A DNA stretch of 64,000 nucleotides from a bacterium. GTDB lineage: Bacteria > Calditrichota > Calditrichia > RBG-13-44-9 > J042. Where the stretch lies: contig WFTQ01000109.1 in NCBI GenBank assembly GCA_015485355.1, forward strand, positions 1,088 through 65,087, written 5' to 3'. Below the pieces are notes generated by a model, which was not told the DNA's origin, did not search any database, and was given only the letters and a program-made list of their open reading frames with translations. The translations under genes and the position numbers were made by a program. Positions 23,101-46,505 of the stretch are shown piece by piece (the first letter of the stretch is position 1; every line of letters starts with the position of its first letter).

Positions 23101-23522
23101 GATTCCGGATCGGGGACTCTTCTTAGCAGGGCCGGGGGGGTGGTAACCAGAACACGCGCTCGTTTTTCCACCAGATCGGAAAGAGCGTTCAGCCGCATGC
23201 TGTAGAGGGCGGGGGTGAATAGCCCCCTGTCGAATGGTACCACTTCGTCCGAGGGCAGGTAGGCCGTCAACGCCGGACGGGAGAGCATGCGCAGATCGTC
23301 CACCAATTTTTCGGCGGCGTCGCTGTCGGGAACGATGACCAGAAGAGGCGATTCCAGGGTATCCTGAACGTACTTGATCACAAAGGCCAGAAAGGAGCCA
23401 TAAATTCCCCGCACCGTTATGCTGTGACGGGAGAGCAGAGCCCGGTGAAGGTCGGTGTATTCATCCTGGCCGTAAATCGTCGATGCCAGTTTCAGCATGG
23501 TCGTGACAGTAACCTGTTCCAT
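20190..23522 (-). CDS. mfd: Transcription-repair coupling factor
   Basis: UvrB-like N-terminus, CarD-like RID (VVHVDYGIGRY), helicase motifs GDVGYGKT, DEEQRFG, TATPIPRT and QLRGRVGR, TRCF tail. Confidence 0.97.
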   Translation of the reverse strand: MEQVTVTTMLKLASTIYGQDEYTDLHRALLSRHSITVRGIYGSFLAFVIKYVQDTLESPLLVIVPDSDAAEKLVDDLRMLSRPALTAYLPSDEVVPFDRGLFTPALYSMRLNALSDLVEKRARVLVTTPPALLRRVPDPESLRQNILHLKVGEDLERELLLDWLVEGGYERVGTIEEIGQFSARGGIVDVFSFESDGPIRIEYFGDTIESIREFDVLSQLSTREIQSVRLVGQGPQTRSGACLLDYFPENTLLFWENSEQDRKILNEWWEQAVQRFEEHQEELELTSIEDHYVPLSELLHRLKGYRRIEHTHLGRMEIGDVHFNAHPPAAFRGNMKLFLEHIQKFFDRQRDGTAGQLYVLYEGAAARERLEEILEAELGFLPPIHFIEGELHQGFYLPTPHIEVLTEHEIFNRLKARRRKRRLRVSGSLIRSLNSLNYGDYVVHVDYGIGRYLGLERITVAGRERDVIKIQYEDNDILYVTLDNLNRIQKYVSEEGYRPRLTRLGSPEWERVKKRTRKAVENIARELVQLYARRMSQQGHAFSPDTLWQKELEASFPYEDTPDQIRATREVKRDMEAAKPMDRLICGDVGYGKTEIAIRAAFKAVMDGKQVAVLVPTTILAQQHFHTFRERMVNFPITIEVLSRFRTPKDQKDILQRLANGEIDIVIGTHRLLSEDVRFKDLGLLIVDEEQRFGVTHKEKLKQIKITVDTLTMTATPIPRTLHMALMGARDLSNVDTPPSNRHPVITEITTWDRHLIYRAITYEIERGGQVFFVHNRVQTIDGVAAMLNTIVPRARIAVAHGQMRERQLEKIMNDFYHRRYDVLVATMIIENGLDIPNCNTIIINRADQFGLAQLYQLRGRVGRSDRQAYAYFIIPPQERLNETALKRLYAIEEFADLGSGLKIAMRDLEIRGAGNLLGHQQSGFINAVGYDLYQKILQEAVETIQQETLPETFWETRMPTVDAKVEVDAEMYLPDDYVNSPHEKVMIYHRLLNLDNLHHIDNLVKELRDRFGPLPEPTRKLIEMVKIKKLASRHYIKQVKIHKSKMFLYFDERATEKEPFIEQVLSKFVRQTMTEIFFSQGNELKVTVDVKGRTELDRMSFAKNFLLNL

Positions 23523-23951
23523 AGCAAACCTTAAAATATAAGGATAAATCCAGCGGAAAGGTTCCCGAAAAATGAAATTCGCCGGAAAGGCCTGTGGACT
23601 CTCCTTTTCCTTGGATCCGCAACATAGTGCCCAATCAACGGTTCCAGGAAGGACGGGAGCACGCGATCAAACCATTGATGCCGGCCGCGCCGTCTTTTGA
23701 CGGGCAAAGAGACCGCATTCATTTTCTCAAGAGGGGGTTTTAACCACCCCGCAGCGCGATGAAGTATATCGCTTCAACGTCGCCTTGATCTATGGTAGGC
23801 GGGGATGTTGCCGGGGTTCTATTTCGATTGGATGGGGTTGACCCCTCCTGGCGAAACGCGCCATAAGGAATTTGTCAAGCGCTCCCGGGAACCGCCGGGA
23901 GGCATGGGATGGCCGGGAAAAAAATTTTTTGTTTTTTTCAAGAAAGTCAGC

Positions 23952-23960
23952 TGTTATATT
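23952..23960 (+). promoter_or_regulatory. Extended -10 promoter candidate for the his leader
   Basis: TGnTATATT about 30 nt upstream of the leader ATG. Confidence 0.45.
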
Positions 23961-23989
23961 GTATGCCGAATTTAAGGAGCATAAAAGAA

Positions 23990-24079
23990 ATGTACCGGTT
24001 TCATCACAATCCTTTGCTGCATCATTGTCATCATCGTGTGCGTCCGTGTGATGGAACCGGAGAGCCCTGTGTAACTTAA
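23990..24079 (+). CDS. hisL: his operon leader peptide (29 aa, MYRFHHNPLLHHCHHRVRPCDGTGEPCVT)
   Basis: RBS AAGGAG, six His codons in three pairs, directly upstream of the terminator and his operon. Confidence 0.9.
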   Translation: MYRFHHNPLLHHCHHRVRPCDGTGEPCVT

Positions 24080-24139
24080 GCGAGACGTCTGTTTTGAGAG
24101 TGTTCAGCCCGGTTCCGTCAGGAGCCGGGCTTTTTTTTT
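23995..24139 (+). promoter_or_regulatory. Histidine transcription attenuator (segments 1-4)
   Basis: Seg1 CCGGTTTCATCAC (23995-24007) pairs with seg2 GTGATGGAACCGG (24048-24060). Seg2 also pairs with seg3 CCGGTTCC (24109-24116). Seg3:seg4 forms the terminator. Confidence 0.88.
24107..24139 (+). terminator. Intrinsic terminator of the his attenuator
   Basis: GCCCGGTTCC-GTCA-GGAGCCGGGC followed by T9. Confidence 0.93.
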
Positions 24140-24140
24140 G

Positions 24141-24402
24141 GTGCGCCCGGTGGGGGGTGTCAAAGCTTTCGGCAAGAGGAGGTTGAATGGATCGAAACGA
24201 TGGTCGAGCGGGGAAATATGCTTCGCGCCTCTCCGCGGGTGAAGGGCGGCAAGGCGTGGCCGGCATTGACGGGATGACGGTGGATGAGCTGATGCCCTAC
24301 CTGCGGGAAGAATGGGCCGGGATTAAGGAAGAGCGGTTATCCGGCGAGTACCATCCTCAAACGGTGCCGCGGGGGCTCGACCTGCCCGGGCCCGGGGAAA
24401 AG
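24141..24402 (+). mobile_element. Decayed group II intron (class C-like): 5' end plus frameshifted RT N-terminus
   Basis: Begins GTGCGCCCGG directly after the terminator U-tract. Encodes ETMVERGNMLRASPRVKGGK, then a frameshift near 24253, then GVAGIDGMTVDELMPYLREEWAGIKEERLSGEYHPQTV...DLPGPG, resembling group II RT domain 0/1. Confidence 0.8.
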
Positions 24403-24482
24403 CAAGGCGGAAGGTGGACATTCCTCATTCGGATTGAAGGAATGAACGTGTGGAAACAAATCATTGGCACTCGAAAGAGGGT

Positions 24483-25340
24483 ATGATGCTTACACTTGCT
24501 TTGCAGAAGTCAGGACGGTTGAGCGACAGGAGTTTGGCTTTGTTAACCGAGTCGGGAATTCATTTAGAGAACGGCTCTTCCAATCGGTTGAAAGCCACGG
24601 CCGGCAACTTTCCTCTACAGATACTTTACTTGCGGGATGACGACATCCCGGAATGCGTGGCCGATGGCGTGGCCGATGTGGGCATCGTGGGCTTGAATGT
24701 GGTGGAGGAAAAGGAGCGATCGGTTCGGGTCGTCGAAAAGTTGGGATTTGCCCGATGCCGTTTGTCCATTGCGGTGCCCCGCCAGTTTCACTATACCGGT
24801 TTGGCCTCGTTAAACGGGTTGAGCATCGCCACCGCCTATCCCCGGATCTTACGGAAGTTCCTTGATAATCAGCATTTGCAGGCAACCATCCATGAAATCA
24901 GCGGTTCGGTGGAAGTGGCTCCGGGTATTGGAATGGCCGATGCAATTTTTGACATCGTCAGCACCGGCAGTACCCTGATGAGTAACGGGTTGGTGGAAGT
25001 AGAGACGGTCATGCATTCCGAAGCCGTGCTGGTGGCCACCCCGGATTTAAACGGGGACAAAGCGGCCGTTCTGGAATCCCTGTTGTTTCGTTTTCGGGCC
25101 GTGATGAAGGCCCGGCGTTACCGCTACATTTTGTTGAATGCACCGAACGAGGCTTTGGAGGAAATTTCCCGGATTTTGCCCGGCATGAAGAGTCCCACTA
25201 TCATGCCGCTGGCCATGCCCGGCTGGTCTTCGGTACATTCGGTAATTCAGGAAGAAGATTTCTGGGAGATCATTGAAAATCTAAAAGCAGCCGGGGCCCA
25301 GGGGATTCTGGTGGTTCCCATCGAGAAAATGATTGTATGA
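24483..25340 (+). CDS. hisG: ATP phosphoribosyltransferase (long form)
   Basis: LALQKSGRL, RDDDIP, GSVEVAPGIGMADAIFDIVSTGSTL and the C-terminal regulatory domain. Confidence 0.97.
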   Translation: MMLTLALQKSGRLSDRSLALLTESGIHLENGSSNRLKATAGNFPLQILYLRDDDIPECVADGVADVGIVGLNVVEEKERSVRVVEKLGFARCRLSIAVPRQFHYTGLASLNGLSIATAYPRILRKFLDNQHLQATIHEISGSVEVAPGIGMADAIFDIVSTGSTLMSNGLVEVETVMHSEAVLVATPDLNGDKAAVLESLLFRFRAVMKARRYRYILLNAPNEALEEISRILPGMKSPTIMPLAMPGWSSVHSVIQEEDFWEIIENLKAAGAQGILVVPIEKMIV

Positions 25341-26653
25341 GGAGTAAAGGGATGCAGCAAATTCGAACGCAGGACGGGGGGGATTATTGGCAACTTCTAA
25401 CGCGTCCCGCCGCTCGGCGGCAAGAGGTTCGCCCACGGGTGAAACAGATTCTGGAAAGCGTACAGCTGACCGGGGATACCGCTCTTCGGGAACTGACCCG
25501 CCGGCTCGATGGGGTCGAATTGGAACATTTTGAGTTGCCTCGAGAGGAATGGTTTCCTCGGTCGGAGACCGTTTCCGGGGAATTGCAACAGGCCATGTCC
25601 CGTGCGGCAATCAATATTTACTATTTCCATCAATCCCAATGGTCGCCGGAAGAATTGAAGGTGGAAACCTCGCCCGGGGTTTTTTGTTGGCGTCGACCGG
25701 TGCCCATACAGCGGGTGGGCATTTATATTCCGGGGGGGACGGCCCCCCTGTTTTCCACGGTGTTGATGCTGGGAATTCCGGCCCAGATTGCGGGTTGTCC
25801 GGAAGTGTTTCTGTTCACCCCTCCCCGCAGCGACGGCACGGTCGATCCCACCATCTTGTTTGCCGCACGATTGGCGGGCGTTCACCGGGTGTTCCGGGTA
25901 GGGGGAGCCCAGGCTATAGCGGCTATGGCCTGGGGGACCGAAACGGTGCCCGCAGTGGATAAAATATTTGGGCCGGGTAATGTTTACGTAACGGAGGCCA
26001 AGGCGCAGGTGGCCGCGCAGGGGGTGGCCGTGGATTTGCCCGCAGGTCCTTCGGAGGTGTTCATTATCGCCGACGAGGCTGCCGATGCCGCATGGGTCGC
26101 CGCCGATCTCCTTTCCCAGGCGGAGCATGGTGCCGACAGCCAGGTGGTGCTGGCCACCCCTTCGCAGCGACTGGCCCGGGCAACCCTGCAGGAATTGGAA
26201 CGCCAGTTGGCTCGGTTGCCCCGTCAGGAATTGGCCCGACGGGCCCTCCAACAGGGCGTCTGCCTGATCACACGCAACCTGAACGAGGCGCTGGATATCG
26301 CCAATCGTTACGCTCCCGAGCATCTCATCCTGATGGTACAGGATTGGGAAGGGTTGGCAGAACGGGTGAAACACGCCGGCTCTGTGTTTCTGGGATACCT
26401 TACGCCGGAAGTACTGGGAGATTATGCCTCGGGCACCAATCATGTGTTGCCCACAGGCGGAACGGCCCGGGCCTATTCCGGAATCAGCGTGGAGAGCTTT
26501 ATTCATTGGATTACTTTTCAGCAGGCCGACCGGAAAGGCCTGCGTTTGCTTGGCCCCACCGTGGAATTGCTGGCCACCGCAGAACGGCTGCATGCCCATG
26601 CCCGGGCCGTATCCTTACGTCGGAAAATGGTGGAAGGAGATACCCAGATATGA
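25337..26653 (+). CDS. hisD: Histidinol dehydrogenase
   Basis: YIPGGTAPLFSTVLM, DKIFGPGN, AGPSEV, QAEH, YAPEHL and DYASGTNHVLPT. Confidence 0.97.
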   Translation: MRSKGMQQIRTQDGGDYWQLLTRPAARRQEVRPRVKQILESVQLTGDTALRELTRRLDGVELEHFELPREEWFPRSETVSGELQQAMSRAAINIYYFHQSQWSPEELKVETSPGVFCWRRPVPIQRVGIYIPGGTAPLFSTVLMLGIPAQIAGCPEVFLFTPPRSDGTVDPTILFAARLAGVHRVFRVGGAQAIAAMAWGTETVPAVDKIFGPGNVYVTEAKAQVAAQGVAVDLPAGPSEVFIIADEAADAAWVAADLLSQAEHGADSQVVLATPSQRLARATLQELERQLARLPRQELARRALQQGVCLITRNLNEALDIANRYAPEHLILMVQDWEGLAERVKHAGSVFLGYLTPEVLGDYASGTNHVLPTGGTARAYSGISVESFIHWITFQQADRKGLRLLGPTVELLATAERLHAHARAVSLRRKMVEGDTQI

Positions 26654-45137: not shown

Positions 45138-46505
45138 TCACTCCCTGATAACATCCGATAACGGTTGATTAATCAGCGTTTCGACTTCCGCCACCGAGGC
45201 GTGATATTGTTGCAGGGCATTCAGATAACGCGCCCGTACCTCGAACAGCGTGCGTTGGGCGTCTAACACATCCAGAAAATCAAATTTCCCCATCAGGTAA
45301 CCCTCCTGAATGGTATCGAAAGCCCGTTGTGCCTGGGGCAAGATGTTGTTTTTAAGGATGAGAACATTGCTGTGGGCGATTTTCAAACGCGCATAACTAT
45401 CGGATAATTGGGTTTTTAATTGAATTTCCACAGCCTGTTTTTGCTGCCGGGCCTGTAACACCTGGTAGCGGGCCGCCTGGATCATCCCCTGATTGCGGTT
45501 GAAAATGGTGAGAGGAACCGACAGTCCCATGACGAATGCACGGGTATTCAGGTCGTTTAACTGGCGGACGCCGGCACTCACGATGCCGTCGGGGATTCGG
45601 TTGGCTCGTTCCAGTTCCAGAACCGCCTGCCGTTGTTGGATGGCCAGGGCCTGACGCACCAACAAAGGATTTTGGAGAATGAGTTTTTCCAAGGTTTCCT
45701 GGGGAGGGATCGTCTGGGTAATGGTATCCAGTTTCCCGACCACGCGTTCGAATACCGCGGTGGAACTTCCCCAGGTGGATGCCAGTTGCTTTTTTGCCGC
45801 ATCCAGTTCGATGCGGGCCTGATTCAGGTCTAACTCCGTATTGGACAGCGCCACCCGGGCCCGGGCGGCCTCCGCGGGAGAAATTTTGCCCGCCCGTACC
45901 CGACGGTCAATCGATTCGACAAACGTCCGGGCGATCCGAACCAGCTCCTCATTCAAGGCCACTTTTTCCTGGGCCGCTAAAACCGCCACATAAGCCTGCA
46001 CCACATCCCGAAAAATCAACGTACGGATCACTTCATATTCCTGGGCCGCCAGATCGGCTTCCAGTAACGCCGCCCGAGTCCGTTTGGCCCGCTTCCCGGC
46101 GGTTAAAAAGAGTTGCCGGATCTGTACAGTGATCTCGCTGGCTTCAAACCCTTGGACTTCCTTGCCGCCTGCGAAGTTCTCCACCTCCATATCCAGTTCC
46201 GGATTGGGCAGCAAGGAAGCTTGTAACGCCAGCGCCTCGCGACTGCGAATTTCGTACGAAAAAGCCTGCAATTCGGGGTTATACAACAGCGCCAGGGAAA
46301 GCGCCCGGGATAAAGTTAAAACTCCCCGGGGCTCTTCCAGTAAAATACGCTCCTCCATCGGCTTTGGTAGCGCCTCTTGAATATCCGGTGCATACTCCTG
46401 TATCAAAGGGCTGGGTTCCACCGGGCGCACCACCGTCTGATATCGGGCACAGCCGAGCAAAACCGTACTGACCGCAAACAGCAGCAAAATGTTCAAATTC
46501 CGCAT
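45138..46505 (-). CDS. czcC: CzcC/TolC family outer-membrane factor
   Basis: Lipobox LLGC, ALLYNPEL, SLLPNPEL and GKFDFLDVLDAQRTL. Confidence 0.9.
   Translation of the reverse strand: MRNLNILLLFAVSTVLLGCARYQTVVRPVEPSPLIQEYAPDIQEALPKPMEERILLEEPRGVLTLSRALSLALLYNPELQAFSYEIRSREALALQASLLPNPELDMEVENFAGGKEVQGFEASEITVQIRQLFLTAGKRAKRTRAALLEADLAAQEYEVIRTLIFRDVVQAYVAVLAAQEKVALNEELVRIARTFVESIDRRVRAGKISPAEAARARVALSNTELDLNQARIELDAAKKQLASTWGSSTAVFERVVGKLDTITQTIPPQETLEKLILQNPLLVRQALAIQQRQAVLELERANRIPDGIVSAGVRQLNDLNTRAFVMGLSVPLTIFNRNQGMIQAARYQVLQARQQKQAVEIQLKTQLSDSYARLKIAHSNVLILKNNILPQAQRAFDTIQEGYLMGKFDFLDVLDAQRTLFEVRARYLNALQQYHASVAEVETLINQPLSDVIRE

Follow-up and report, generated by a model that had tools for sequence, protein, structure and literature searches.

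Group II introns of class C (IIC) insert after intrinsic transcription terminators (PMC4424553, PMC7306698, PMC1702495), and those behind terminators form the most abundant class in bacteria (PMC7306698). Class C examples are B.h.I1, O.i.I1 and GsI-IIC (Toor 2006, PMC1702495; Zimmerly & Semper 2015, PMC4424553; Waldern 2020, PMC7306698). An IIC intron has been noted as a false 'tandem' behind the terminator of a SAM-I riboswitch (Sherlock et al. 2022, PMC9481103). Truncations of bacterial group II introns are frequent (PMC4028801).

Here, analysis of the his locus of an uncultured Calditrichia-type bacterium suggests that, very probably, an IIC intron inserted one base behind the terminator of a predicted his attenuator and decayed to a dead stub of ~260-295 bases. 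The relic has in common with the class C examples: a target consisting of a terminator stem-loop and T-run; the 5' end GTGCGCCCGG; an IIC-like N-terminus of the reverse transcriptase (RT); and an orientation sense to the terminated transcript. It differs from them in what is left, which amounts to ~10 nt from the 5' end of the ribozyme, ~50 nt from domain IV and ~80-95 RT codons, without domains I-III, V and VI and without the RT core. With truncated bacterial group II introns, whose truncated or fragmented copies reportedly had their frequency described by Dai and Zimmerly in 2002, it shares the state of a dead, internally deleted copy. There is no difference in kind from these; the host locus and a microhomology joint are what is particular.

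The target itself compares with the enterobacterial his attenuator. In both, a short ORF has its His codons in clusters, three hairpins (1:2, 2:3 and 3:4) can form as alternatives, and the terminator stands directly before hisG. In contrast to the enterobacterial element, the one described here belongs to the phylum Calditrichota and relatives, its His codons are interrupted (HH..HH.HH), and the Rfam His_leader covariance model (RF00514) gives no match at E<=10 in positions 23500-25000. It would resemble the enterobacterial His_leader in its working without belonging to that family by sequence.

Organization of the his locus

The region was recovered in hydrothermal-vent metagenome DNA runs, and its closest HisG relatives are Calditrichota MAGs. 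In an Rfam scan, the window (the whole 64-kb stretch of DNA that was analysed) returned no family at gathering score, be it a tRNA, a riboswitch or another known RNA. The + strand carries, in this order, A/T-rich block, leader ORF, terminator, T9, spacer, hisG and hisD-like ORF. The features are as follows.

23990-24079, + strand: predicted his leader peptide ORF, MYRFHHNPLLHHCHHRVRPCDGTGEPCVT; 29 codons; Shine-Dalgarno AAGGAG at 23974-23979
23994-24139, + strand: predicted attenuator RNA, from fold, terminator scan and sequence reading
24140, + strand: G, the final base of the 5' exon, separating the T-run from the start of the intron
24141-24150, + strand: surviving class C intron 5' end GTGCGCCCGG, 1 nt after T9, on the same strand as the terminator
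24145-24150, + strand: GCCCGG, the hexamer at which the deletion of domains I-III was probably joined by microhomology; matches to the close copies start at 24145
24151-24200, + strand: domain IV-derived stretch just upstream of the start of the intron-encoded protein, collinear with ~632-690 of the relative L089, GGTGCATCAAGGGGCACGGCAAGGCGAGGT
24167-24399, + strand: frameshifted N-terminal fragment of the intron RT, profile positions 5-81 of 430
24187-24486, + strand: 99-codon ORF that crosses the relic and ends in a TGA overlapping the hisG ATG (ATGA)
24400-24435, + strand: zone of the 3' deletion joint; native spacer beyond, with a Shine-Dalgarno-like AGAGGG before hisG
24483-25340, + strand: hisG (ATP phosphoribosyltransferase); Pfam HisG 2.9e-50, HisG_C 2.7e-30; start ATGATG
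25337-26653, + strand: hisD-like ORF, named from gene order alone

For the HisD protein, no encoding contig is on record. The spacer from T9 to the hisG start at 24483 measures 343 nt.

The 29-aa leader ORF holds six His, arranged HH, HH and HH. In the fold, segments 1 (23994-24008) and 2 (24047-24060) form a hairpin. An alternative 8-bp 2:3 pairing, read from the sequence, joins GGAACCGG (24053-24060) to CCGGTTCC (24109-24116), the latter being part of the terminator 5' arm. The terminator scan places a stem of 11 pairs at 24106-24131, and T9 occupies 24131-24139. The leader region folds with an MFE of -65.5 kcal/mol (z=-4.5 against shuffles), and this fold contains both the 1:2 hairpin and the terminator. 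The opposition of 2:3 pairing to terminator pairing is classic anti-terminator geometry, from which attenuation itself is predicted.

The relative L001 (87% HisG) has a homologous leader (MIRFHQNNLHHHHCHHH...), equivalent pairing segments and an equivalent terminator. The attenuator elements are kept in L003 and L016 as in L001, and the terminator is kept in L013. Across 41 Calditrichia and Neomarinimicrobiota relatives, an ORF with at least four His lies upstream of hisG in 34, the His being scattered in a few, and the last T-run ends 8-49 nt 5' of the hisG ATG in 33. Leader-peptide his attenuators appear, from these sequences, to be the rule across the MAGs of both groups, and no Rfam family matches them at E<=10.

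Upstream of the leader, an A/T-rich block, AAAAAATTTTT(T/C)GTTTTTTTC ... TATATTG, is conserved between the window (23917-23966) and L001 (2694-2745). It is probably the his promoter; no sigma-70-type consensus was found.

Intron-derived features behind the terminator

An earlier note on this DNA had placed an intron 5' end 1 nt past the T9 tract, and the coordinates confirm this: T9 at 24131-24139, G at 24140 and GTGCGCCCGG at 24141-24150. L127 has exactly this junction, TTTTTTTTG|GTGCGCCCGG, and L095 and L090 have nearly the same one. JGI metagenomes were scanned with an alignment of the RT N-terminus, and the first 75 nt of the relic were compared with at least 80 loci. The arrangement of T-run, G and GTGCGCCCGG recurs in many of the loci listed, typically ~600 nt before the part of the RT that matched. 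In intact relatives, GTGCGCCCGGCAGGGCG opens the intron at a distance of ~550-780 nt (mostly ~600) ahead of the RT N-terminal match, and the order hairpin, T-run, 0-5 nt, GTGCGCCCGGCAGGGCG is the junction that opens the intact IIC introns closest to the RT fragment. Nine loci (L086, L089, L096, L106, L108, L114, L127, L143 and L148) carry GTGCGCCCGG identically over 10 nt, with a G+C-rich hairpin and T-run before it and CAGGGCG... after it. Most of 22 further RT relatives have a candidate GTGCGCC.GGCA start, with small variation, after a stem-loop.

The window departs from the relatives after the 10 nt of GTGCGCCCGG, at the deletion joint, so that only these 10 nt of the 5' end survive. The sequence GTGCGCCCGG is not rare by itself: there are two exact copies in the window, and its weight as an intron end comes from position and context, not from the 10-mer. 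The other copy, at 46421-46430, lies inside a lipoprotein-like ORF with no hairpin and was rejected as an intron end, being attributed to chance. A 15-nt exact copy of TGGTGCGCCCGGTGG at 46418-46432 (- strand), in the lipoprotein-like ORF and with no hairpin or T-run, was likewise judged a chance occurrence. L001 reads TTGGGTG after its T-run, and part of the 'GGTG' in the window could be native flank. With respect to class, the insertion lies right behind an intrinsic terminator stem-loop (11-pair stem, T9, 1 nt), which along with attC sites is a class C target, and the 5' boundary is GUGYG with an IIC-type continuation, over 10 nt.

Past GTGCGCCCGG, the window is collinear with L089 ~632-900, which covers the end of domain IV and the start of the RT, and not with domain I. 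A GGAGG Shine-Dalgarno lies at 24178-24182 inside the domain IV-derived stretch. The 99-aa ORF, searched against the PDB with phmmer, finds the GsI-IIC RT as its best match (E=6.8e-8, chain residues 17-84). The three other, weaker PDB matches are presumably IIC maturases too, which their PDB names do not say. Among 1.84 billion representative proteins, 736 reach E<=1e-3, and every match falls on the N-terminus of a group II RT. Pfam gives no match on the 99-aa ORF; the fragment is N-terminal to RVT_1.

A 430-position RT profile, built from 24 intact relatives, matches in two frames: that of 24100, over profile positions 32-81 (nt 24247-24399, E=1.2e-17), and that of 24101, over positions 5-40 (nt 24167-24274, E=8.9e-5). 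The RT fragment is therefore frameshifted, as the earlier note had proposed. DNA alignment with L089 locates a net -1 frameshift near 24250-24258. Nothing matches past position 81 of 430; the RT core is absent.

About 77 residues survive, and the C-terminus, where an absent En domain would mark class C, is missing. The class of the RT is a putative one, drawn from nearest neighbours: the best PDB match is GsI-IIC, none is named as a non-IIC intron RT, and most of the nearest metagenomic RTs examined reside in introns with an IIC-type junction. The listed metagenomic RTs are 40-63% identical to the fragment, near-identical copies from runs X1 and X4 not being among the matches listed. Among these matches, no intact parent copy is nearer than ~60% amino-acid identity. 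A retron or other non-intron RT was rejected in view of the IIC 5' junction and the domain IV collinearity.

The catalytic parts of the intron are missing. The Rfam group II models (RF00029, RF02001 and RF01998) give no match at E<=10 in 23500-25000 and none at gathering score across the window. In the gathering-score scan, eight of nine relatives match RF02001 and RF01998 (group-II-D1D4-3 and D1D4-1), and five of those eight also match domain V (RF00029), which lies ~1.8 kb past the 5' end. L127, a copy with an internal deletion of its own, matches no group II Rfam model. Domain I, the carrier of the EBS sites of the EBS1-IBS1 and EBS3-IBS3 exon pairings, is deleted in the window. Together with the end of profile matches at position 81, this agrees with the previous reading that neither domain V/VI nor a YADD motif is present before hisG. 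The window does not hold the six-domain ribozyme, with its catalytic domain V and branch-point domain VI. As judged from its sequence, the element is a relic of an IIC member and would be unable to splice or move.

Insertion site in relatives and support from separate assemblies

Two relatives have the same attenuator without the insert; their spacers measure 84 and ~30 nt, that of the window 343. Comparison with relatives, which had been proposed as a check, thus supports the insertion. In L001, the same leader and terminator are followed by a T-run-to-ATG spacer of 84 nt with no RT-like sequence. The second empty site belongs to a relative found on 1-2.7 kb contigs in runs X1-X4, whose matches to the terminator and to hisG are separated by 180 nt, compared to 495 in the window. 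After its T-run it reads ATGACCTGTACAACAGAAGGAGACGCGCAC, and its ~30-nt spacer has its own Shine-Dalgarno.

The relic arrangement was assembled separately, whole or in parts, in five runs (X1-X5) from two studies. A 20,850-nt contig covers 23500-25000 with one difference, and both borders of the relic lie within a 448-nt contig (X4). A strain that is ~2-3% divergent shows the same arrangement across tiled short contigs. On this distribution, the insertion and most of the decay would have occurred before the split from the divergent strain and after the split from L001.

Long spacers between terminator and hisG also occur in two other Calditrichia relatives, L003 (2715-3000, 286 nt) and L016 (2830-3000, 174 nt), as non-coding inserts. 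These were considered as intron relics and rejected, the inserts not being RT-like. L003 carries AAATTCGTG tandem repeats and long inverted repeats.

Probable course of decay

The structure of the relic, compared with its relatives, suggests a path of decay, of which we infer both the order and the mechanism of the deletions. A full-length class C intron of ~1.9 kb would have entered sense-oriented, one base past the T-run of the attenuator terminator. A left deletion of ~480 nt (by the L089 alignment) would have taken out domains I-III, probably between two GCCCGG hexamers, one at intron positions 5-10 and the other in domain IV. Small indels would have shifted the RT reading frame, and a right deletion of at least ~1.3 kb would have taken out the RT core, maturase and domains V and VI. 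The remnant, from 24141 to ~24400-24435, would now lie passive in the 5' leader of the read-through his mRNA, between the attenuator and AGAGGG.

The left joint is best seen against near-identical intron copies in the same metagenomes, on a 598-nt contig (X4) and a 331-nt contig (X1), both known from contig alignments alone. These close copies match 24145-24183 and then 24259 to the contig ends (24296 for X1, 24317 for X4). The match at 24145 is preceded in them by 401 nt or more of different sequence, ending ...CCAGGGAGGTAGGAGACGGAATCTCTGAG(G/T) just before GCCCGGTGGGG and collinear with CCAGGGAGTGGCCGG... of L089; ...GGAATCTCTGAG(G/T) precedes the match start in both, and in domain IV they read GAG(G/T)|GCCCGGTGGGG. 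As one GCCCGG stands at intron positions 5-10 and a second one in domain IV of the close copies, a deletion between the hexamers gives exactly GTGC-GCCCGG-TGGGG. Domains I-III were probably lost in this way, as far as can be read from contigs seen as alignments. A microhomology deletion would predict that the close copies read GAGG-GCCCGG-TGGGG in domain IV and GTGCGCCCGGCA at the 5' end, and an intron origin would predict that, in the full X1 and X4 contigs, GTGCGCCCGGTGGGG is not contiguous within any non-intron element. The intron 5' end described in the earlier note is present as its GTGCG end, and what survives is a stub of just ~10 nt fused to domain IV; the probable GCCCGG deletion had gone unseen.

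Between 24183 and 24259, the close copies have 97 nt and the window 75 nt; this net shortfall of 22 nt would include the frameshift. At the right side, nothing is left past RT residue ~81-95, and the joint is bounded to 24400-24435. A tighter placement is prevented by the native spacer, which has diverged too far from that of L001 to be recognized; aligned to the L001 spacer, the spacer remainder scores no better than shuffles. A third-frame RT-like similarity in 24400-24435, GKARRKVDIPHSD ('KVDIPHSD'), was too weak and non-significant and was rejected. The relic indeed lies in the spacer of ~340 nt before hisG, as had been claimed, but it fills only ~260-295 of the 343 bases.

A second internally deleted IIC copy was observed in L127 (3907-4200), behind a hairpin and T8. 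There, ~95 nt of the 5' end (GTGCGCCCGGCAGGGCG...) are fused directly into the RT N-terminus (...HRVESNKGAAGVDGMTV).

The open reading frame through the relic

The 99-codon ORF begins 4 nt downstream of the intron-derived GGAGG, and its exact sequence is on record in a protein collection, from six contigs. The divergent strain differs by ten substitutions, nine of them in the ORF: two are synonymous, seven change residues, and none creates a stop. The ratio of two to seven is about the neutral expectation, and no protein constraint is apparent from it. Since L001 has ATGATT at its hisG start, the ATGA overlap is native. The Shine-Dalgarno-like AGAGGG still lies just upstream of the hisG start, and the fold of the 390-nt leader is no more stable than that of shuffled sequences (z=-0.5). 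Neither the fold, nor the ORF substitutions, nor the hisG initiation region gave any sign that the relic has a present function. The suggestion that the relic had reshaped hisG translation initiation accordingly finds no support: AGAGGG is retained, there is no excess of fold, and the ORF is without protein constraint. The 99-codon ORF is most likely incidental, and the recorded 99-aa 'protein' is almost certainly not a gene.

Discussion

The short left end of the relic is open to another explanation. The relic might start with GCCCGG (24145) in domain IV, the left deletion having passed the true 5' end of a full intron inserted here, in which case GGTGC would be native. The close copies match only from 24145, TTGGGTG follows the T-run of L001, and the window contains a further, chance copy of the 10-mer, each of which agrees with such a 5' truncation. 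However, T8-9 G GTGCGCCCGG is identical to the L127 junction and near-identical in several other intact introns, and the second empty-site relative has the unrelated flank ATGACCTG. The deletion endpoint would have to recreate both consensus and spacing by chance, which is estimated at ~1e-4 (10-mer, 0-5 nt from the T-run). Truncation past the 5' end is improbable on this balance. The joining of an intron fragment to the his locus as a metagenome assembly chimera is scarcely credible. The window does come from a metagenome-assembled genome, and repeated intron copies break assemblies, leaving short contigs of 196-598 nt; separate assembly in five runs of two studies and in the divergent strain argues against it, as do the 20,850-nt contig and the 448-nt contig over both borders.

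A further question is whether the debris has been put to use. If the 99-codon ORF were translated, it could couple translation or prevent Rho-type polarity, changing hisG expression. The Shine-Dalgarno 4 nt before its ATG, the 99 open codons, the ATGA overlap and the persistence of the open frame in the divergent strain would fit this role. The overlap is native, though, and hisG already has its own Shine-Dalgarno-like sequence; the nine ORF substitutions fall near neutral expectation and RNA structure is not in excess. Such exaptation is quite unlikely, more so than truncation past the 5' end. The proposal of a group II intron relic behind the his terminator, made in the earlier note, is upheld by the identity of the junction, the RT homology, the absent catalytic domains and the insert-free relatives.

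For an intron inserted and then gutted at this site, it is reasonable to suppose that the intact element was once transcribed conditionally, putatively mainly under histidine starvation. The SAM-I riboswitch case offers a close parallel. Among the loci compared here, L114 (620-800) holds an apparently intact IIC intron (5' end ~793) directly behind an FMN riboswitch terminator (RF00050, 119 bits). These two cases and the relic have in common an intron behind a conditional terminator, inside a regulated leader. They differ in that the SAM-I and L114 introns are apparently intact and stand behind ligand-sensing riboswitches, whereas the relic is a stub behind a predicted ribosome-mediated leader-peptide attenuator. 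Among the other loci, L096 (732-860) has a tRNA gene terminator followed by an IIC intron, and L143 (706-789) has a c-di-GMP-I riboswitch ~800 nt upstream of an IIC intron.

It could be asked whether conditional terminators, both leader-peptide attenuators and riboswitch terminators, are productive rather than accidental homes for IIC introns. The his-attenuator relic, the L114 FMN-riboswitch case and the published SAM-I case are candidate instances. If this were true, read-through on starvation would time the transcription, splicing and mobility of the intron to stress, with silence otherwise. From the sequences in hand, we regard this idea as doubtful.

Taken by its parts, the relic is an ordinary instance of a well-known element at a well-known type of target. 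It stands out in three respects: its target is a leader-peptide attenuator, relatives show the empty site, and one deletion was probably joined at microhomology. It would provide a clean example, with empty sites, of an IIC intron that strikes a regulated terminator and is then gutted, one joint apparently using 6-nt microhomology. It would also add a leader-peptide attenuator to the riboswitch terminators as IIC targets, leaving knowledge of IIC elements unchanged. For this Calditrichia lineage, the unusually long hisG leader would be explained as the debris of a mobile element.
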